From: a virus
Direction: 5' to 3' (one strand)
UHGV virus genome: UHGV-0140021
Length of the DNA stretch: 20,318 nt
Shown here: piece after piece, positions 7,364 through 20,026 of the stretch
Layout of the letters: each line of letters begins with the position of its first letter
How positions within the stretch are numbered: position 1 is the first letter of the stretch
Notes under the pieces: model-generated
What the model was told of the DNA's origin: nothing
The model's input: the letters and a program-made list of their open reading frames with translations, nothing else
Databases searched by the model: none
Program-made: the position numbers and the translations under genes

Positions 7364-7385
7364 AAGGCCACCAGAAGGCAGCCTT
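7364..7385 (-). terminator. Weak hairpin-plus-U-run downstream of the 80-aa moron ORF
   Basis: AAGGC / GCCTT stem (5 bp) with 12-nt loop followed by TTT on the minus strand; weak. Confidence 0.25.
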
Positions 7386-7420
7386 AATAAATGTGGTGTA
7401 CCTATTTATTAATCAGATAG

Positions 7421-7663
7421 TTAAGACTCAAGATCAATTAAATAGCTATTCCCTTTAGACGTAATTCTATTCACTATCCAGCTGTCGTCACAATCAGACG
7501 TACTCTGCACAGCATTTACCAGACCCAACTCAGCGAGATCAGAAATAGCAAAATTCACCGCTTCCGCTGGAATGTGAGGAAGATCAGAAGATTGAATTGT
7601 TTCACGTGGTCCAAGAGCGCTTGCGCGACTCAGAGTTTCGATATGAACAGATGTTAATTTCAT
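7421..7663 (-). CDS. Hypothetical protein (80 aa), moron between the Q terminator and holin; possible small winged-helix protein
   Basis: ORF with AAGGCGG SD, bracketed by a candidate extended -10 promoter (TGTTACAAT, plus 7699-7707) and a downstream hairpin; lower GC than flanking genes. Confidence 0.5.
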   Translation of the reverse strand: MKLTSVHIETLSRASALGPRETIQSSDLPHIPAEAVNFAISDLAELGLVNAVQSTSDCDDSWIVNRITSKGNSYLIDLES

Positions 7664-7849: not shown

Positions 7850-8680
7850 TTACGCGATATTTATCACATCTTCACTTTTAGTCACCCGATTCAGTTGAGA
7901 GCTTGAATAACTCTCCTCCTGGAAACATTTGGTCACCAGGCTTTCATAGAATGGTTTCCAGCTATAACGCCACGTTCGGTCAGGCAGACTCGGCAACTCA
8001 GAAAAAACACCTCGATAGGCAACCGATGATTTTGGCCTGCTGTATCCCCGACCTTCACAGCGCTTACATTCTTTGTAAACCGGTACGCCCTGCAGTTCTG
8101 TCGCTTTACGGTCAATAGTCTTACCTGTGCCGCCGCACTGGCATCGCTTACTTAACTTTCCTGTGCCATGGCAGCGGGAACATAACGTATGATCAGTGTC
8201 AGTTACATCGCGCTTAACCTCAAAGTCAGATGGTGACTGTCTCAGGTCTTTTGCCCATTGTGGCAATCGCATTGTGTAATGACTTTTAGTCACGGTTTTA
8301 GTAGTTGTAAGCAACCCTTTACCACTACATTTTGGGCATGCCACGCTATCAGCGGCTGATGAGGAATAATCGTTATAGGCAAACCGGGCAAGAATACGCA
8401 TGCAGAGGGGAAACTTTTTCCCTGACGCTTTACGAATGGCCATGGGCGCATGCTCTTTCGCGTACTCCGTTAGCCAAGCTATTGACGCCTCCCTGTCCTG
8501 GCTGCTGATACCAGCTTTGCCCAGAAACATTGCCAGGCCTATCCCCGCATCGGCCTGAGTCATCCCCAGTGCAGCCATTACATCAGTAACCGTCAGTTGT
8601 TCACTGGCTGTCGCTCTGCTGGTATCTGATATGTGCATACCTTTCGGCGCAAAAAATTTCAGTACATTATCCAGGTTCAT
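7850..8680 (-). CDS. Antitermination protein Q-like
   Basis: 276-aa protein with several CxxC zinc-binding pairs (CPKC, CSRC, CQC, CKRC); last gene before the late promoter/terminator and lysis cassette; N-terminus resembles enterobacterial prophage Q proteins (from memory, not searched). Confidence 0.65.
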   Translation of the reverse strand: MNLDNVLKFFAPKGMHISDTSRATASEQLTVTDVMAALGMTQADAGIGLAMFLGKAGISSQDREASIAWLTEYAKEHAPMAIRKASGKKFPLCMRILARFAYNDYSSSAADSVACPKCSGKGLLTTTKTVTKSHYTMRLPQWAKDLRQSPSDFEVKRDVTDTDHTLCSRCHGTGKLSKRCQCGGTGKTIDRKATELQGVPVYKECKRCEGRGYSRPKSSVAYRGVFSELPSLPDRTWRYSWKPFYESLVTKCFQEESYSSSQLNRVTKSEDVINIA

Positions 8681-10384: not shown

Positions 10385-10771
10385 TCAGGCGGCTGCACCC
10401 GCCGGTTCATATCTGCTGATCGTTATCTCTACCCGACCTTTCGGCACTACGGGTCCCCATTCCACCAGCATGCGCTTAATCTGGCTGTCGTCTTCCCAGA
10501 CACCCGCATGCGTCAGCGCGTCAAACAGGGCTTTGTTGTAATTATCGATATCCCGGCGGCGCGCATCCGGCGGGTACAGAGTGATTTCTACCGCTGCCAG
10601 TTCAGTCGATGGCTTCGGGAGACGTCGTAATTGCTCAATGATCGCCACGCAGGCAGCGCTCTGGTATTTACGAGCATCAGCGCTAATGAGGTGACGACCG
10701 GCCAGCGGCCCCTTATTAGGGGCGCGCCAGTACGTGTTCACGCTCGGAGGGAACGGGAGCACAAGTTTCAT
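10385..10771 (-). CDS. rusA: Crossover junction endodeoxyribonuclease RusA (Holliday junction resolvase)
   Basis: MKLVLPFPPSVNTYW... with DARRRDIDN and LFDALTHAGVWEDD motifs closely matching E. coli RusA; ATG overlaps the C5-MTase stop (ATGA); GGAGG SD. Confidence 0.9.
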   Translation of the reverse strand: MKLVLPFPPSVNTYWRAPNKGPLAGRHLISADARKYQSAACVAIIEQLRRLPKPSTELAAVEITLYPPDARRRDIDNYNKALFDALTHAGVWEDDSQIKRMLVEWGPVVPKGRVEITISRYEPAGAAA

Positions 10772-12702
10772 GCCACCTCCTGCTGTTGCACTGCACACAG
10801 TTCCGGAAGATTTGCCTCCACCAGCGCCCTGGCGAATGGTGGTGGTACCGCATTACCGCAGCGGGCTACCTGCTTATCTTTTGCATAGCGATTTCCACGG
10901 TAGTCCTGATCAATAACGTAACCATCCGGGAAGCCCTGCGCTTTGTAGAGTTCATGCGGCTGCAACATGCGCATTCCGATATCAACGATCTGGTATTTAA
11001 CCCCATCGATCGTTACCAGCCATTCATCGTCACTTTCCCCGCAATACGTCTCGAGAAATGTGCGTACCTCACCCACGTGTTGGCCACCAGCAGTGATTGT
11101 TGGCATTGGCACATCAAGGCGTTGCCCGTCGCGGCATGTTCCACGCAGTTTCACCAGATGAGAGGCAACTACCGCATGATGGTCGACAGTGGTCACTGAA
11201 TGCGCGGGTTCATCCATACTGACACCAGGCCCCGTATAGTTACCGCCGTAGTGTTTCGCCAGGAACGCGCTCACCGTCGCAAATTTATTTCCGCCTGCAG
11301 TAACGGTCCCCAGCGGGTTATCCAGTCGCAGCACACGCGGTTCTTGCCCAGGTCGTTCGCCATAACCCATCTGAATCAGCGTAGGCGTTACCGGTTGAGA
11401 TTTACCGCCACCACCAGCGGTGATGGTTGCGCTCGGTTCGTCTGCACGGTGGCCGACGCTGGCCCCAAACTGGCGGGCTATCACTGGCGCAACCAGACAG
11501 GCTCGGGATTGCTTCAGAATGGTATGAGCAGGTTTATCCAGCGGGCGCGGTTTCGCCTGGTATTCACTACCACCATTACCCGCCAGGAATGGCGTCAGTG
11601 CAGCCTCAACAATCCCGAGTGCATGCCCGTTCCCGCCCGGGCGTTTTGACGTGCCAGCGGTTACCGTCGGAACAGGTTCGGTAAGGGGCTGCCCGGTTGC
11701 GCCAGTGCGGAATTTTGTCAGGTGTGGAACGGCTAACGCGTAGCCGAGTTTTTTAGTAATGGTCTGTAATGGCTCATTCAGTGACTGTCCGCGAAAAGCG
11801 TCATACGCATTTTTTGAGCTCGTGTGGTTGCACTTCACAATAAACGGCGACGCACTTTCGATAACAAAGCGCTGTATGCCGCGCGCGATCCGCTTCAGAG
11901 TGTTCTCCGCCAGCGGTTTTTTGCGGTCGAAGATGGACAGGGCCGGAATATTCCAGTCGATACATTCCGCAGCGGTACGCCATGGCATCAGCCTGCCACT
12001 TTGCACCTCCAGAGACTTAGGATCCCCATGGGTAATAGCAGGCCACTGGATTGGGCAACCATCGCAACGCATAACCATGAAGAAGCGTTTGCGGATCGTC
12101 GGCGCGCCGTAATCACACGCACGTAGTTCGCGATAATCAACATCATATCCCAGCCCATCCACCAGCTTTTGTGCCTGCTCGCTACCTCTTTCGATAGACA
12201 GAAACTCACAAACCTCAGCCAGTGCCGGGTGATCAGCAGGAATGCCAGTGGACAGCATGCCGACAAATGCATTGAATGTTTCGCCAGTGCGGGCAGGATC
12301 CGGACGCATTTCATCGGCCAGCAGCGGTCCCCACGTTTTGAACTCTTCCACGTTCTCCAGCATCATCACGCGCGGTCGCTTTGCCAGTGCCCAACGCAGA
12401 ACAATCCAGGCCAGACCGCGTATCTCTTTTTTCACAGGCTTTGCGCCTTTTGCCTTCGAGAAGTGTCGGCAGTCCGGGCTAAACCATGCCAGTCCGACAG
12501 GATGACCTCCGGTGGCGGCTACCGGATCCACGTCAAATACGGATTCACAATAATGCAGTGTGTCCGGGTGGTTCGTCTTGTGCATCGCAATGGCGTTTTC
12601 GTCGTGGTTTATCGCAATATCCACGCTGCGCCCGATCGCCAGTTCAATACCCGTTGATGCGCCACCGCCACCAGCAAAGTTATCAACGATAATCTCACGC
12701 AT
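10768..12702 (-). CDS. DNA (cytosine-5)-methyltransferase, unusually long (644 aa) with a repeated TRD-like region
   Basis: C5-MTase motifs: I DNFAGGGG, IV SPDCRHFS (catalytic PC), VI ENV, VIII TIRKRFF, IX ELYKAQGFPDGY, X CGNAVPPP. A ~330-aa variable region holds six repeats of [DN]-x-P-x-x-T-[IV]-T(-A-G-G). Confidence 0.9.
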   Translation of the reverse strand: MREIIVDNFAGGGGASTGIELAIGRSVDIAINHDENAIAMHKTNHPDTLHYCESVFDVDPVAATGGHPVGLAWFSPDCRHFSKAKGAKPVKKEIRGLAWIVLRWALAKRPRVMMLENVEEFKTWGPLLADEMRPDPARTGETFNAFVGMLSTGIPADHPALAEVCEFLSIERGSEQAQKLVDGLGYDVDYRELRACDYGAPTIRKRFFMVMRCDGCPIQWPAITHGDPKSLEVQSGRLMPWRTAAECIDWNIPALSIFDRKKPLAENTLKRIARGIQRFVIESASPFIVKCNHTSSKNAYDAFRGQSLNEPLQTITKKLGYALAVPHLTKFRTGATGQPLTEPVPTVTAGTSKRPGGNGHALGIVEAALTPFLAGNGGSEYQAKPRPLDKPAHTILKQSRACLVAPVIARQFGASVGHRADEPSATITAGGGGKSQPVTPTLIQMGYGERPGQEPRVLRLDNPLGTVTAGGNKFATVSAFLAKHYGGNYTGPGVSMDEPAHSVTTVDHHAVVASHLVKLRGTCRDGQRLDVPMPTITAGGQHVGEVRTFLETYCGESDDEWLVTIDGVKYQIVDIGMRMLQPHELYKAQGFPDGYVIDQDYRGNRYAKDKQVARCGNAVPPPFARALVEANLPELCAVQQQEVA

Positions 12703-13576
12703 GGGTTACCCCCTGCATGCTGCCAACAAGACCACGCGCAATTGTAATAATTTCGCTGGTGGCCGTTCGTTCCAGCCAGAGTTGATTGATGTTGGCTTTC
12801 AGCTTGTTCTGCTGAGCCTCACTCAATACGTCAACGCCTTCCACCTGGTTAAACACCAGACCAACCTCTAGAGGCCAGATACGTGACTCAGTTTCCGATG
12901 GTATTACTGGTTCCTGGGCTGTCCGCACTGCAATTGTTTGCTCTTTACCAACAGCGAATTGAGCCAGCGCCATAAATTCCCGACCTTTTGCCTCCAGTTC
13001 TGTGCGGTTGATATAGCTGAACCGCTCACCACGCCACGACTTATCGAATACAGCTATGGCACCGGCAAAAAACGCGCTGGTGGGTTTCTGTTTTTCGTCA
13101 GCAGGTACAAACCACACAGGCAGATCGAACCCAATGCGCCCGCGAATGAATACAATGTGATCGGCATCTTCCGGCCACCACGTTTCACTCGGCGCGGCTT
13201 TTATCAGGAATACATAGCGACCGCCCTTCTCGCGCTGGGCTGCTGCGTATTTCATGATGTGCGTCATACCAGTGATCGCCTGTTTCTCGTGGTACTGCGA
13301 ACGGCTATACGGTGGGTTGCCATAGCCAGCGCCACCCAGTTCTGCCAGACGTTCAGACCAGTCCTGCGTCAGCGCGTTATCTTCGGCGGTGTACCATGCC
13401 GGGCATTTCGCGTTGTCGGCGTCAGCAAACAAGTCCAGAACTAATGGACCAAATAGCGCGTTGATCCCCCAAAAAAGCAGATCCGGTGTTCGCCACTGAT
13501 CGCCAACTTCTTTCAATTCGTGGGCTGGTTGGCTACGTAGTTCCGCCAGCGACTGGCAATATTTGTTTAACGTCAT
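12695..13576 (-). CDS. Phage N6-adenine DNA methyltransferase (Dam-like family) with ~110-aa C-terminal extension
   Basis: QWRTP...DLFADADNAKCPAWYT...GNPPYS motifs typical of phage Dam-family N6-adenine MTases; start overlaps the upstream ORF stop and its stop overlaps the C5-MTase start. Confidence 0.8.
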   Translation of the reverse strand: MTLNKYCQSLAELRSQPAHELKEVGDQWRTPDLLFWGINALFGPLVLDLFADADNAKCPAWYTAEDNALTQDWSERLAELGGAGYGNPPYSRSQYHEKQAITGMTHIMKYAAAQREKGGRYVFLIKAAPSETWWPEDADHIVFIRGRIGFDLPVWFVPADEKQKPTSAFFAGAIAVFDKSWRGERFSYINRTELEAKGREFMALAQFAVGKEQTIAVRTAQEPVIPSETESRIWPLEVGLVFNQVEGVDVLSEAQQNKLKANINQLWLERTATSEIITIARGLVGSMQGVTHA

Positions 13577-13935
13577 CCTCTGAACCCCTCTGGAATCGTT
13601 GTATCAACCGGACCAAAAGCCATCACATCGCGCTTTTTCGCACCCCAGTCAGCGCGTTTAGGCCGTCCCTTCTGCTCCCAGCGGGTAGCGCTTTGCAGAT
13701 AGCTCTCGAATTTCTTCGGGCCGAACAGCGTTTCCGGGCGCATGTACTGGTACTGCTCGTCGTTCTCGTGCCAGTGCTCATGCTTCAGGTCGATAACCAG
13801 TTGCAGGTCTGCAACGCTGTATCCCTCACGCAGTCGGGCACGGATGTTCTCCAGGGATGTTTTTGATTTCTGATACCGGGATCCGCTGATCTTGTTCAAA
13901 TGGGTCAGAACCAAAATTGCCTGATCAGTAATCAC
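13573..13935 (-). CDS. C-terminal portion of an O-like replication protein (conserved phage C-terminus, RPETLF...KFE.YL motif); possibly a fragment of a disrupted gene
   Basis: 120-aa ORF from a GTG with no recognisable SD; its frame is open upstream to 14016 and so almost abuts the stop of the O-like N-terminal ORF (14007). Confidence 0.5.
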   Translation of the reverse strand: MITDQAILVLTHLNKISGSRYQKSKTSLENIRARLREGYSVADLQLVIDLKHEHWHENDEQYQYMRPETLFGPKKFESYLQSATRWEQKGRPKRADWGAKKRDVMAFGPVDTTIPEGFRG

Positions 13936-14006
13936 GACTTCAGGGTCTGGTTGCGCCGCAACCGGACAAGAGGGTTTTGAAGTTACTTGTGGATCTTGTT
14001 TTGATT

Positions 14007-14408
14007 TTACTGACGGTCAAAACCGCCGTTTTTGACGGATTTCGACGGGTCAGTTTTTGAGGCGTCAAATTTTGATGCGTCAGATTTTGACGTGTCAGAA
14101 TCTGACAGTTGAGAAAATGCGGCAGCCTGAAGTTTCGCCACATTCAGGCGGTACACGTTCGAAGCATTACGGTTACCATTACGGCGCTGTGTACGCGTGA
14201 GCCAGCCATCTTTTTCAAGCTTAGCGATTGCCGTTCTGATAGTGCTCGGCCCTGCGCCAAGCTGGCGAGCAATAGTTTCAATGGACGGCCAGCACACGCC
14301 CTCATCGCTGCTGAAATCAGCGAGGCGGGCCATGATCGCGACACTAGACAACTTCATGCCCGACGCCGCGCAACCATCCCATACGTAGCCGGTTAATTTA
14401 GTGCTCAT
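14007..14408 (-). CDS. Replication initiator O-like protein, N-terminal HTH DNA-binding part; 3' end encodes the ori iterons
   Basis: N-terminus MSTKLTGYVWDG...CWPSIETIARQLGAGPSTIRTAIAKLEKDGWL is a typical replication-initiator winged-helix; C-terminal repetitive peptide (SDSDTSKSDASKFDASKTDPSK) is coded by the 15-bp iterons; SD GGGAGA upstream. Confidence 0.65.
   Translation of the reverse strand: MSTKLTGYVWDGCAASGMKLSSVAIMARLADFSSDEGVCWPSIETIARQLGAGPSTIRTAIAKLEKDGWLTRTQRRNGNRNASNVYRLNVAKLQAAAFSQLSDSDTSKSDASKFDASKTDPSKSVKNGGFDRQ
14025..14114. repeat. Replication origin iterons (about five 15-bp direct repeats, TTTTGAnGCGTCAnn) embedded in the O-like gene, with an adjacent AT-rich stretch (13975-14010)
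   Basis: TTTTGA-type hexamers recur at 14030, 14040, 14055, 14070, 14085 and 14100 (15-bp period for the last five); each unit carries TGAnnnnTCA inverted symmetry. Same layout as ori-lambda inside gene O. Confidence 0.65.
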
Positions 14409-14417
14409 GATCGTCCG

Positions 14418-14744
14418 TTATCTCCCTGAACTTTTGCCTGAAATGCTCAAGTGGGCTGAAGCATTCGTGCGGGTAGCCATCACGCAGATAGATAACGCGC
14501 TGTGTTTCTGGCTCCCAGCGGATAACACGGACTGGCACTCCACGGTGATCTTTGAACCTTCGGTTAAGTTCGCGCACAGGCGTTTCGCCCTCCGGTTGTA
14601 GACCCCCACAATTGAAACCGCCCTACTGTGGTTACACGGAACCAAGCGGTTTGATAATCTGCGTTCATACCGAAACAACGGAGTACCCGAAACCGGGATC
14701 ATCCTGAGTTGCGGTAGACGGTTAAAAGCCGTTAAACTGCTCAT
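14418..14744 (-). CDS. Hypothetical basic protein (108 aa); uncertain gene
   Basis: ATG 6 nt after the CII-like stop with GGAG SD; its stop lies 9 nt before the O-like ATG. Weakened by many rare codons (AGG, AGA, CGG, CTA) and a competing plus-strand ORF (14401..14601). Confidence 0.25.
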   Translation of the reverse strand: MSSLTAFNRLPQLRMIPVSGTPLFRYERRLSNRLVPCNHSRAVSIVGVYNRRAKRLCANLTEGSKITVECQSVLSAGSQKHSALSICVMATRTNASAHLSISGKSSGR

Positions 14745-14749
14745 GCGGA

Positions 14750-15301
14750 TTATTTCTCCATACTCGAAGAGTTGTTCGCCAAGGCGCCCGGAGCTGCACA
14801 CTCGCGGGCGTCACTCTTTTCAGCGACACAAAAAACTCGATAAAGAAGCGCTACGTGCTCCTGGAACTTCGCAATAACCTGATAGCTGTTTTCCTCAATC
14901 TGAGCGCGCTCATCTGCGTCAATCACCCCATCAGCCGTGGCTTTACGTACAAAATTAGAATGACGGCCTATCCATTCGATGGACTCCATCAGGCGCTGGT
15001 TGATATCGGCGTTATCCAGATCATCAACATCTGCCAGCGGTACAAATACGCCCTGAGAATGGCGCGCAACGGCATCAGCGATATGAGTTGAACCACCAGC
15101 ACGTTGTAAAACCATTGCCCAGCCCAGCGGGAAGATCTGATCGCCGTCAACACGAAGGCGGTTAAACAATGCGTTCTCTGTCACGCCCAACCATTCCGCC
15201 GCCTCGGCATAACCACCAGGTAGATCGGTGATCGTTTTTTTTATCGCCGCCACCAGCCAGGCTGGCTGACGTTCGACTTTCCAAATAGGTTCGTTACCCA
15301 C
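14750..15301 (-). CDS. CII-like / YdaT-like transcriptional regulator (HTH)
   Basis: Position immediately downstream of cro; HTH-like segment DLPGGYAEAAEWLGVTENALFNRLR. Start trimmed to GTG 15301 (AAGGGG SD) because the longer ORF overlaps cro; start remains uncertain. Confidence 0.45.
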   Translation of the reverse strand: MGNEPIWKVERQPAWLVAAIKKTITDLPGGYAEAAEWLGVTENALFNRLRVDGDQIFPLGWAMVLQRAGGSTHIADAVARHSQGVFVPLADVDDLDNADINQRLMESIEWIGRHSNFVRKATADGVIDADERAQIEENSYQVIAKFQEHVALLYRVFCVAEKSDARECAAPGALANNSSSMEK

Positions 15302-15344
15302 GGTTAACCCCTTAATTCTGTGGTTATAAAAATCAGCTCGTCTG

Positions 15345-15545
15345 CTACTGTTTAGGGTAAATGTCAGGACGAAGATCAGATTTGCTGATAATCCCAGCAG
15401 TTGTTTCCTCCAGCTTTTTAGCCAAGGAAAAACCTGCCTTTTTGTAGCCATTGAAAACTAAACGCAGGTAGCCAGGCGTGGAACCTACGCTTCCAGCTAA
15501 TTCGCCTTGCTGCTCTTTAGTTAAAGAGTCCCAATACTCTTTCAT
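15345..15545 (-). CDS. Cro-like repressor (66 aa)
   Basis: Small ORF divergent from cI, ATG at 15545 with AGGAGG SD, start overlapped by a 17-bp operator. Assignment is mainly positional. Confidence 0.6.
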   Translation of the reverse strand: MKEYWDSLTKEQQGELAGSVGSTPGYLRLVFNGYKKAGFSLAKKLEETTAGIISKSDLRPDIYPKQ

Positions 15546-15633
15546 AATATGTACCTCCTGTGTACATATTACACGAAAGAAATGAACCCACAAGGTACTT
15601 GTACCATAGAGGTACACATTGTTTAATTTGCTG
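15546..15633. promoter_or_regulatory. Immunity control region (oR-like): divergent promoters and 17-bp operators TGTACC-N5-(G/T)GTACA
   Basis: Operators at 15550-15566 (TGTACCTCCTGTGTACA) and 15600-15616 (TGTACCATAGAGGTACA), extra GTAC half-site at 15595. Candidate -10 TAATAT for cro on the minus strand and TTTAAT (15622-15627) just upstream of the cI ATG. Confidence 0.6.
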
Positions 15634-16308
15634 ATGAAAACTATCCAGGAAATCAGGCGATTAAACGCCCGAAAATTGAGAGATGGTGTTGGGGGTAATA
15701 GCTACTTCGCTAACATGATCGATCGTGAACCTACACAAACCAGCCGGTTTATGGGTGAAGGTGCCACCAAAGGTATTGGTGACGCTATGGCAAGGCATAT
15801 CGAAAAATGTTTTGACTTGCCTCAAGGTTGGCTAGATACCGAACATCAAACTACCAACATTGCTAAATCACCCGACGTTTCAGACGTTAAAAGATCAATT
15901 ACGATGGTCCCGGTTATATCCTGGGTGCAAGCCGGAGCATGGACGGATGCTGGTTATGCAGAGGTAGATTTGAGTAGTGTAGAAACATATCCTTGTCCCG
16001 TTCCGTGCGGGCCAATGACTTATATCTTACGCGTCATTGGTGATTCAATGATCGATGAGTATCGTCCTGGCGATATGATTTTTGTAGATCCAGAGGTTGC
16101 AGCTTCTCATGGCGATGATGTTATTGCTTTAATGCATGATTCTGGCGAAACGACGTTTAAACGATTAATAGAAGATAGTGGCGAAAAGTTTCTTAAAGCT
16201 TTAAACGCCAACTGGCCAGAGCCATATATTAGGATCAATGGTAATTGCTCGATTATTGGCACCGTTGTTTTCTCAGGAAAACCACGACGGCACAGGCATA
16301 AGCCTTAA
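15634..16308 (+). CDS. cI-type prophage repressor with LexA-like S24 peptidase domain
   Basis: C-terminal domain has the GDSM serine motif and downstream lysine (TFKRL); divergent from cro across the operator region. ATG 15634 chosen (ORF track starts at TTG 15619); no SD, consistent with a leaderless or short-leader transcript. Confidence 0.85.
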   Translation: MKTIQEIRRLNARKLRDGVGGNSYFANMIDREPTQTSRFMGEGATKGIGDAMARHIEKCFDLPQGWLDTEHQTTNIAKSPDVSDVKRSITMVPVISWVQAGAWTDAGYAEVDLSSVETYPCPVPCGPMTYILRVIGDSMIDEYRPGDMIFVDPEVAASHGDDVIALMHDSGETTFKRLIEDSGEKFLKALNANWPEPYIRINGNCSIIGTVVFSGKPRRHRHKP

Positions 16309-16842: not shown

Positions 16843-17214
16843 ATGAGTAATGACCGCATGACCGTAGTGCCAGATTTTCTTGGCGAACTGGATGCCGGCG
16901 TGTTCATGAACAAAATCGCGGCAGCACTTAACACCACCGCGCTTGGCGTTCTGAACAACGGCAACAAAGGCAAAGTAGTCCTCACCTTTGATTTTGAGCG
17001 CATGGGTAATTCCGTTGAAGAGAAGCGCGTCAAGATCAAGCACAAGCTGAACTACAGCACCCCAACACCGCGTGGTAAAGCCTCCGAAGAGGACACAACC
17101 GAAACCCCGATGTGGGTCAACAAAGGCGGGAAGCTCACCATCCTGCAGGAAGATCAGGGTCAGCTGTTCGGGATCACTGGCGCGGTGGATGGAAAGCTTA
17201 AAGCGGCTCAGTGA
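16843..17214 (+). CDS. Hypothetical early protein (123 aa), first gene of the early-left operon; possibly YfdP-like
   Basis: ORF with GAGGG SD 9 nt upstream; first gene after the leader; size and context similar to CPS-53 yfdP (recall only). Confidence 0.55.
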   Translation: MSNDRMTVVPDFLGELDAGVFMNKIAAALNTTALGVLNNGNKGKVVLTFDFERMGNSVEEKRVKIKHKLNYSTPTPRGKASEEDTTETPMWVNKGGKLTILQEDQGQLFGITGAVDGKLKAAQ

Positions 17215-19564: not shown

Positions 19565-20026
19565 ATGCAGATTTCACCAATCACCTTAAAAGTTGCCAAA
19601 GAATTTGTGGCGAAACATCACCGTCACAACAAACCGCCAACAGGACATAAATTTAGTATCGGTCTGAAAAATTCTGATGGTGAATTGATTGGCGTAGCTA
19701 CCGCAGGAAGACCAATAGCCAGGAATTTCGATGATGGCCTTACTCTGGAGGTTAACCGTACTTGCACAACTGGAGAGCGCAACGCTAACAGCGCTCTTTA
19801 TGGAGCAATCTGGCGGGCAGCAAAGGCTATGGGTTATCAGCGCTGCATAACCTACACCCAAGCGGATGAATCCGGGGCATCGCTGCGCGCGGCTGGTTTT
19901 GTCCGGGTTAAGGAACTTCCCGCGAGAAAAGGGTGGGCAGCATCAAGCGTTGCACTGAAAGATAAGCGAGACCCGGTAGGAAATGGTGGTGTTACACGCG
20001 TTCTTTGGGAAATAAGGAGAAGGTAA
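19565..20026 (+). CDS. Hypothetical protein (153 aa)
   Basis: ORF starting immediately after the upstream stop (GGGGGAGTGA ATG); no confidently recognised domain. Confidence 0.5.
   Translation: MQISPITLKVAKEFVAKHHRHNKPPTGHKFSIGLKNSDGELIGVATAGRPIARNFDDGLTLEVNRTCTTGERNANSALYGAIWRAAKAMGYQRCITYTQADESGASLRAAGFVRVKELPARKGWAASSVALKDKRDPVGNGGVTRVLWEIRRR

Follow-up and report, generated by a model that had tools for sequence, protein, structure and literature searches.

The replication origin of phage lambda, ori-lambda, lies inside the initiator gene O, where it separates the part encoding the N-terminal DNA-binding domain from that encoding the C-terminal domain. In the lambda genome (NC_001416), which we analyzed as a control, four annotated iterons (O nt 349-433, at spacings of 20, 24, and 23 nt) are followed by an AT-rich stretch and then by a 28-bp palindrome, GTCAGAGAATTC-TGGC-GAATCCTCTGAC (inverted repeat I4). 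Origins also lie inside initiator genes of temperate phages of Gram-positive bacteria, as in oriL in gene 38 of SPP1 and the repeats in the rep gene of TP901-1. P1 oriR and E. coli oriC have GATC repeats in an AT-rich unwinding region, together with Dam dependence and SeqA sequestration. Six-iteron origins have been described in Stx phages (PMC7466680). Here, we analyzed a 20,318-nucleotide stretch of viral DNA (UHGV virus genome UHGV-0140021; hereafter, the window), in which a preliminary description had proposed a replication origin at 13975-14114, made up of a 15-bp iteron array and an AT-rich segment inside the initiator coding sequence. The window, which derives from a metagenome assembly (ENA ERZ28588632, scaffold_207, 22.6 kb; sample SAMN04436967), is a lambdoid prophage or phage genome. 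We find that the element is very probably a lambdoid prophage origin that lies, like ori-lambda, within the gene for its own initiator; this copy is damaged by a 22-nt deletion. This reading draws on gene position, the order of the parts, conservation at the DNA level, covariation with the N-terminal domain, and module exchange.

Organization of the candidate origin

The initiator gene and the parts of the element within it are as follows:

14007..14408, - strand: N-terminal fragment of the initiator, 133 aa, with a winged-helix HTH_36 domain and a repeat-encoded linker
14031..14105, - strand: iteron array of four good 15-bp units and one degenerate unit, delimited by Tandem Repeats Finder (TRF), motif counts, and register
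14009..14030, - strand: spacer with a small inverted repeat, GTCAAAACCG/CGTTTTTGAC (I11), then the deletion scar
13972..14016, - strand: AT-rich candidate unwinding element of low GC, with a direct repeat (D5) at 24-nt spacing
13945..13967, no strand assigned: GC-rich palindrome of 23 bp, GTCCGGTTGC-G-GCGCAACCAGAC (I8; 11-nt arms, 91% complementary)
13573..13935, - strand: C-terminal fragment of the initiator, 120 aa, Phg_2220_C / TIGR02220 (Pfam 2.6e-24)
13940..14143, - strand: spurious third-frame open reading frame (ORF) of 67 aa with QNLT repeats, kept open by the repeats

TRF reported a repeat of period 15 at 14038-14099, with 4.1 copies, 78% matches, and a score of 75. In gene coordinates, the array spans nt 304-378 and starts at codon 102, after the HTH_36 domain (residues 23-70). 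Read on the - strand in codon register, its units are TCAGATTCTGACACG (14105-14091, that is, TCAGATTCTGAC-ACG), TCAAAATCTGACGCA (14090-14076, TCAAAATCTGAC-GCA), TCAAAATTTGACGCC (14075-14061, TCAAAATTTGAC-GCC), TCAAAAACTGACCCG (14060-14046, TCAAAAACTGAC-CCG), and the degenerate TCGAAATCCGTCAAA (14045-14031, TCGAAATCCGTC-AAA). This last unit is what the preliminary description had listed as a further copy at 14030; the repeat exists, but as a degenerate fifth unit. The 12-nt cores (TCARAATCTGAC, or TCAAAATCTGAC in the sense of the - strand) lie at 14094-14105, 14079-14090, 14064-14075, and 14049-14060, with a variable 3-nt spacer after each. Translation of the array gives SDSDTSKSDASKFDASKTDPSKSVK. 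The preliminary description was right about the repetitive peptide SDSDTSKSDASKFDASKTDPSKS and about the ORF 13940..14143 (-) in an alternative frame.

Motif counts were compared with shuffled sequence. The motif TTTGANGNGTCA, with at most one mismatch, matched five times inside 14041-14097 and once elsewhere in the window, against 1.4 +/- 1.1 matches per shuffled window, and none of 100 shuffles reached six. Likewise, the core TCARAATCTGAC, with at most two mismatches, gave nine matches in the window, six of them inside 14049-14106, against 3.0 per shuffled window (0/100 reached nine). Both TRF and this clustering bear out the 15-bp array, with units at 14031-14105. The window-wide core search showed no further iteron copies beyond chance, for example near the cro promoter, where they might serve autoregulation. 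The TGA...TCA symmetry reported earlier is real, but the bare 10-mer TGACNNGTCA (at most one mismatch) is no rarer than chance, with eight matches in the window against 7.6 expected; the significance of the array therefore lies in its tandem arrangement and not in the frequency of this 10-mer. The claim that the T4 tracts are phased did not hold, since a 15-bp period corresponds to ~1.4 helical turns and the A-tracts are thus out of helical phase. TGA and TCA half-sites alternate at 7- and 8-bp steps along the array, and in relatives TRF often favors a 30-bp super-period. The bound unit may be a TGA-N4-TCA dyad with a variable center or the conserved 12-mer TCAAAATCTGAC spanning the A-tract, and the overlapping 15-bp lattice of half-sites may reflect a filament-like assembly of the initiator rather than discrete dimers.

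The order along transcription is iterons, AT-rich stretch, palindrome, so that the element reaches past the interval 13975-14114 first proposed. The AT-rich stretch at 13975-14010, correctly singled out in the preliminary description, has 28% GC against 52% for the window, which places it in the lowest 0.5% of 36-nt windows. In relatives, this part is built from a tandem pair of GATC-headed 24-bp repeats, GATCCGTCAGTAAAATCAAAACAA and GATCCACAAGTAACTTCAAAACCC. The window has the first of these repeats minus its GAT, and its sole remaining GATC is at 13992-13995. A candidate DnaA box in the AT-rich stretch, AGATCCACA (7/9 positions), was rejected; by inspection, most relatives have GATCCATCA or GATCCGTCA there. 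The palindrome comes directly after the AT-rich repeats and travels with the C-terminal (Phg_2220_C) module. Its consensus in the Phg_2220_C subgroup, GTC(C/A)GGTTGC-NNN-GCAACC(C/A)GAC, has conserved arms and a variable center, and a palindrome with at least nine paired positions was found at 28/64 loci, compared with 10/1280 shuffles.

Run through the same tools, lambda showed these three parts too, arranged in an identical order and at the same gene position, so the comparison with lambdoid origins proposed in the preliminary description is favorable. In both systems the origin is intragenic, placed after the DNA-binding N-terminal domain of the initiator and before its C-terminal domain (in the window, the ORF is split; in intact relatives, it is continuous), and transcription is of the rightward type, from a cro/cII-like region. 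In both, at least four tandem, dyad-symmetric iterons with A-tracts precede an AT-rich stretch and a palindrome, the window having four good units and one degenerate unit and its relatives a proximal unit in addition. In both, the N-terminal domain and the iterons are exchangeable as one module and the C-terminal domain as another. Unlike lambda, the family of the window has a separate proximal unit, and its AT-rich part is built of two or three GATC-headed 24-bp repeats. The initiator also differs from lambda O in its N-terminal domain, which is HTH_36 and not Phage_rep_O, and in its C-terminal domain, which is Phg_2220_C, with a Dam gene next instead of a P-like loader.

Two other kinds of origin resemble the element in part. 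As in P1 oriR and oriC, short GATC-containing AT-rich tandem repeats stand beside an array of initiator sites, and GATC sites are clustered in the unwinding region (in relatives; the window keeps one), whereas the window family has no conserved DnaA box and its origin is intragenic. With the origins of SPP1 and TP901-1, it shares a winged-helix initiator gene that holds its own repeated sites, followed by an AT-rich region, and the two halves of the initiator give weak DnaD_N-like and 'DnaD-like helicase loader' profile matches. The hosts, repeat sequences, and partner proteins of those Gram-positive phages are different, and a close sequence relationship was not established.

Conservation, module exchange, and selection on the DNA

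We surveyed 80 loci from Enterobacterales genomes of different species, found with a 6-sequence alignment of the N-terminal domain; the genera include Citrobacter, Kluyvera, Enterobacter, Buttiauxella, Yersinia, Rahnella, Pantoea, Providencia, and Proteus. An array of three to eight cores at 15-bp spacing is present at gene nt ~300-440 in ~73/80 loci, and relatives with 15-bp units have N-terminal domains 61-99% identical to that of the window. The same units occur in SfII, SfIV, Klebsiella phage 1 LV-2017, Yersinia phage YeP1, phiP27, and a prophage of E. coli Nissle. Lack of conservation in related phages had been named in advance as a ground for abandoning the proposed origin; since genera from Citrobacter to Proteus share the units, this objection falls away. 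Beyond the array come a spacer of 14-18 nt, which varies, and a ~75-nt block in which most positions reach at least 95% conservation (62 distinct sequences), with the consensus GGTTTT(G/C)ACCCnyCAGAATCTGGnGGs-GATCCGTCAGTAAAtTCAAaacaw-GATCCAyCAG.... This block is made up of one more 'proximal' unit and two GATC-headed 24-bp AT-rich repeats. A GATC-N20-GATC pair is present in 64/80 loci, and Proteus has three perfect 24-bp copies, with the proximal unit in the form of 33-bp repeats. We rejected the presence of a phage Dam gene as an explanation of the GATC pair, which was found in 25/30 loci with a downstream Dam gene and in 39/50 without.

An enterobacterial initiator with the same iterons was also seen in records assigned to Vagococcus sp. 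(L027), Chryseobacterium sp. (L032), and Martelella alba (L057, a 742-bp contig), and likewise to Pseudomonas lundensis (L084) and Elizabethkingia phage EKP1 (H67). Their N-terminal domains are 63-91% identical, and these non-enterobacterial records are likely to be contaminating contigs or to have misassigned hosts.

The same N-terminal domain and repeats are joined to Phg_2220_C in 58 loci, to a lambda-O-type C-terminal domain in 13, and to other C-terminal domains in nine. Among these nine is phiP27, whose initiator gene is followed by DnaC-like and DnaB genes. HTH_36, 15-bp iterons, and a lambda-O-type C-terminal domain are combined in SfIV (L004) and in Providencia and Proteus (L070/L071/L075/L078-L081), and CPS-53-like relatives also carry the lambda-O-type domain. 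The C-terminal domain of the SfIV initiator (L004 2501-3442) matches lambda O with a BLASTP E value of 1e-25, with no P-like gene after it; that of a Providencia initiator (L070) matches at 2e-29, and the DNA there contains a lambda-like ori palindrome (29/36 nt). Salmonella phage 118970_sal3 shares only the window DNA from 13573 to ~13978 (C-terminal domain, 92% identity), and combines this same C-terminal domain with a different N-terminal domain and with its own repeats (23 bp x 4.1). The O protein of phi24B and a Klebsiella phage have HTH_36 domains ~40% identical to that of the window, and 22-24 bp repeats at the same gene position. Across loci, the repeats are independent of the C-terminal domain and of neighboring genes. 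Collectively, these sequence comparisons indicate that repeat specificity follows the N-terminal domain, and that the N-terminal domain and iterons form one module and the C-terminal domain another, with the junction at the origin.

Such a junction raises the alternative that the conserved stretch is chiefly a recombination 'linker' at a module boundary, its low divergence reflecting recent exchange. The sequences of E. coli strain 1943 and the window diverge immediately past the region, the homology of 118970_sal3 starts at ~13978, at least three classes of C-terminal domain sit on one N-module, and many 'partial' database proteins end at aa 124-143, where assemblies break. We nevertheless consider this explanation unlikely. 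The 14-18 nt spacer is highly variable while the adjoining 45 nt are at least 95% conserved (62 sequences, Citrobacter to Providencia), and within the array, core positions are conserved right beside varying spacer triplets. Moreover, a recombination linker is compatible with origin function, since the lambda ori is likewise a junction of O-gene modules.

The next alternative is that the repeats are a by-product of a repetitive, disordered Ser/Asp/Lys peptide linking the two initiator domains, produced by slippage and with no role for the DNA as a site. The array is indeed in frame (15 nt = five codons) and encodes (S/T)DxSK repeats, and its copy number varies from three to eight among relatives, as slippage predicts. 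We counted codons in the linker (codons 100-128) of 77 distinct loci and compared them with the N-terminal domain of the same genes. Serine is encoded as TCA/TCT in 86% of cases in the linker vs 22% in the N-terminal domain, and as AGY in 3% vs 51%; lysine is AAA in 97% vs 59%, and aspartate is GAC in 70% vs 50%. The Fisher p-values of these counts are tiny but inflated by shared ancestry, so the effect size is what counts. Aspartate is GAT at both GATC sites, and mostly GAC inside the iterons. In a logo of 37 units from six lineages, core positions carry 1.4-2.0 bits, including third codon positions 3, 6, and 9; third codon positions of the core have 1.4 bits, and none of the three positions of the spacer codon is fixed. 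In the proximal element (14 codons, 42 nt), codons for the same amino acid are identical in 13/13, 13/14, 11/13, and 13/14 cases between lineages, as opposed to 39-52% in the N-terminal domain. Lastly, phiP27 and one further locus (L088) keep GGTTTTsACCCnTCAGAATCTGG in another reading frame, where it encodes TVLTLQNL or VFTRQNLT instead of GFDPSESG.

Taken together, codon choice is fixed beyond what the peptide needs, the only freely varying codon is the spacer of the DNA unit, the adjacent element is nearly without synonymous change and in phiP27 and L088 specifies an unrelated peptide, and unrelated N-terminal domains carry unrelated repeats at the same place. A by-product of a linker peptide is thus very improbable, and the sequences argue that the array and the adjacent element are under purifying selection as DNA and not constrained as peptide. 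We also noted that the proximal unit of phiP27 (L007, gene nt 439-470) and of L088, GGTTTTGACCCTTCAGAATCTGG, is read in another frame than in Citrobacter and E. coli relatives, and that phiP27-type initiators use, for a short stretch, the frame of the spurious window ORF 13940-14143.

It is equally improbable that the repeats are sites for another factor or an RNA signal (an operator array, attenuator, antisense promoter, or target of the YmfL/CII-like or DUF4222 products): palindromic units would suit any dimeric regulator, the array has one promoter-like match on the - strand (14098-14069), and long imperfect hairpins (I1) can fold here, yet promoter- and terminator-like matches in the region are at chance level with no Rfam match, the repeats track the type of N-terminal domain and are shared by phiP27 and SfIV despite different flanking genes, and GATC-headed AT-rich repeats with a flanking palindrome are features of origins, not of operators.

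Several observations weigh against the origin reading or limit it. A half-site spacing of 7-8 bp is unusual for a dimeric HTH protein and leaves the binding unit ambiguous. Lambda iterons are 18-19 bp long (ATCCCTCAAAACGAGGGA) and 20-24 bp apart, whereas the window has a 15-bp period and an unrelated 12-nt core, TCAAAATCTGAC. Cross-locus statistics are inflated, because the loci share ancestry and the repeats evolve in concert, and the 22-nt deletion comes from metagenome assembly sequence. A Pfam scan of the N-terminal domain (E <= 0.01) returned HTH_36, weak GntR, MarR, and DnaD_N, and no Phage_rep_O; a PDB search of the C-terminal domain gave nothing credible, and a Pfam scan of 16 C-terminal domains gave Phg_2220_C only. 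No helicase-loader gene is adjacent to the initiator. Literature searches, with most subscription-journal papers outside their scope, yielded no binding, unwinding, or replication data for this initiator family, and in the same searches nothing specific turned up that describes this family of iterons. A PDB search with the N-terminal domain gave only generic GntR/MarR winged-helix matches, and the sole hint of helicase recruitment is a match to the PHROG 'DnaD-like helicase loader' (3.7e-8). The N-terminal fragment does match the PHROG 391 'O-like' profile, and in combination with the lack of a Phage_rep_O match, this makes 'O-like' a label by analogy or remote homology. The earlier comparison with ori-lambda thus stands for position, order of parts, conservation, and covariation with the N-terminal domain, and fails for the Pfam family and for iteron sequence and period. 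As far as sequence can tell, the element is ori-lambda-like in its working, and not a strict member of the lambda O/ori family.

The split initiator and the 22-nt deletion

In the window the initiator gene is split, and the preliminary description was right to place the array inside initiator coding sequence only in so far as the array lies in the N-terminal fragment and relatives have a single ORF; the window frame itself stops at 14007-14009. The N-terminal fragment matches Pfam HTH_36 (3.3e-12), PHROG 391 'replication initiation O-like' (2.3e-43), and PHROG 11896 (1.1e-70), and ends at a premature TAA, 14007-14009, made by a frameshift. The C-terminal fragment has its listed start at GTG 13935 and a frame open from 14016, and three-frame translation showed that this frame differs from that of the N-terminal fragment. 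The two fragments match consecutive parts of PHROG 428 'replication initiation protein' (profile 89-205 and 230-356, respectively). Instead of a single ~285-aa two-domain protein (HTH_36 + Phg_2220_C), the window therefore has its two domains in two frames.

Alignment to prophages of E. coli C3728 and strain 1943, where the initiator is a single ORF of 285-289 aa, showed a single 22-nt gap between two copies of CCGTCAG. Because CCGTCAG is repeated, the junction can be placed only to within that sequence, at ~14016/14017. At the scar, intact relatives read GGTTTTGAC-CCG-TCAGAATCTGGC-GGG-GATCCGTCAG and the window reads GGTTTTGAC-CGTCAG; the 22 nt lost are the origin-proximal unit TCAGAATCTGGC, which is the best conserved of the units, and the first of the two conserved GATC. 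The deletion thus shifts the frame and leaves the initiator in two fragments, and because the frame stops at 14007-14009, most of the AT-rich stretch falls between the two ORF fragments. A programmed frameshift joining them was rejected: the frames overlap by ~8 nt (C-frame TGA 14017-14019, N-frame TAA 14007-14009), with no slippery heptamer.

In Citrobacter and Salmonella, the full-length protein of 285 aa is very common, with 2845 matches, the best 120 of which are all 285 aa; WP_096324181 is an example of an intact relative. Initiator ORFs end early in three of the 80 surveyed loci, and the two truncated products of the window are on record from only two ENA contigs. The sequence across the deletion is GGTTTTGACCGTCAGTAAA without the 22 nt and CCGTCAGAATCTGGCGGGGATC with them. 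A search for the deletion junction in IMG/VR and JGI metagenomes gave no match, and the intact element was found in >120 IMG/VR contigs, once per viral contig. The deletion is probably a private and inactivating mutation. With a split initiator, a lost proximal unit, and a lost GATC, this copy probably has no working pair of origin and initiator; on sequence grounds, the origin here is most likely a remnant that no longer fires, unless the initiator comes from a related phage in the same host.

Rouxiella badensis (L076, CP114060.1) shows another, independent disruption of the initiator within this element, at gene nt ~400-420. Compared with L074, its G-run before the first GATC is one G shorter (CTGGGGGGATCC vs CTGGGGGGGATCC), and its initiator ORF is cut to 142 aa. 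Mutations that disable prophage replication may arise preferentially in the origin region, which contains repeats and a G5-7 run. Many database entries for the initiator (in the cluster of the 133-aa fragment) are labeled 'partial' and end at residues 124-143, which indicates that draft assemblies often break inside the iteron array; a possible cause is the repeats themselves, or co-resident prophages that share the N-module but differ after it.

Proposed mechanism, gene neighborhood, and significance

In the mechanism we propose, the HTH_36 winged-helix domain would bind the 15-bp units (core TCAAAATCTGAC) and the proximal unit TTTTGAC-CCG-TCAGAATCTGGC, and the resulting nucleoprotein complex would destabilize the adjacent AT-rich element, that is, two 24-bp repeats each with the Dam site GATC. 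The C-terminal domain would then bring in the host helicase machinery, and the GC-rich palindrome would bound the element downstream. The Dam status of the two GATC may modulate opening. A GATC-headed unwinding element often adjoins a phage Dam methylase gene in this family, and by analogy with P1 oriR and oriC, a methylation-gated origin is conceivable, in which firing or a SeqA-type block to re-firing depends on the Dam state of both GATC sites; we regard this as a tentative and rather doubtful proposal. If true, 'initiator-only' enterobacterial prophages (no P, DnaC, or DnaB) would be controlled more like oriC/P1 oriR than like lambda.

The genes around the initiator are as follows:

15619-16308, + strand: LexA-like repressor
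15345-15617, - strand: cro-like gene, first in the listed - strand gene order
14750-15451, - strand: YmfL/CII-like gene, after the cro-like gene
14398-14577, - strand: DUF4222 gene, between the YmfL/CII-like gene and the replication initiator
12695-13576, - strand: Dam methylase, the next gene after the initiator
after Dam, - strand, in order: C5-cytosine methylase, then RusA, antirepressor, DUF968, Q, lysis, terminase, portal

The gene after the window initiator is thus Dam, with no P, DnaC, or DnaB gene following. This one prophage has three DNA-modification genes (10768-13576, -, and 19565-20026, +). The Dam-type N6-adenine methylase (293 aa) overlaps by 8 nt the C5-cytosine methylase, which is unusually long at 644 aa and matches Pfam DNA_methylase in three stretches; a Mom-like modification protein is the third. 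The YmfL/CII-like ORF 14750-15451 (-) is 233 aa from its first ATG and overlaps the cro-like ORF; its true start is probably internal, since the public annotation of this contig gives it 183 aa (L014 2108-2659). The most AT-rich spot of the window is 7384-7445 (22% GC in 36-nt windows starting at 7384-7409). With the Q-like antiterminator gene (7850-8680) on one side and the lysis genes on the other, this spot is probably the late promoter/qut region. A 9-bp tandem repeat, AACAAAGGC x 2.2, lies at 16954-16973, left of the repressor gene (TRF score 33). An Rfam scan of the whole window gave no match.

An intragenic lambdoid origin belongs to a well-known class; this member is new, and the result is one that specialists would expect. 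For the contig itself, the prophage is flagged as probably replication-defective, which bears on whether it is judged inducible or cryptic. For the family, the comparison offers a map of the putative origin, with its iteron core, proximal unit, GATC-headed unwinding element, and palindrome, for a very common group of prophages in Citrobacter, Salmonella, E. coli, Shigella, Klebsiella, Yersinia, and Proteus. This group includes the SfII/SfIV-type serotype-converting phages and the E. coli Nissle prophage, whose replication has so far been annotated by analogy. The rule known from lambda, in which the N-terminal domain and iterons form one module and the C-terminal domain another, thereby extends to a different DNA-binding fold.

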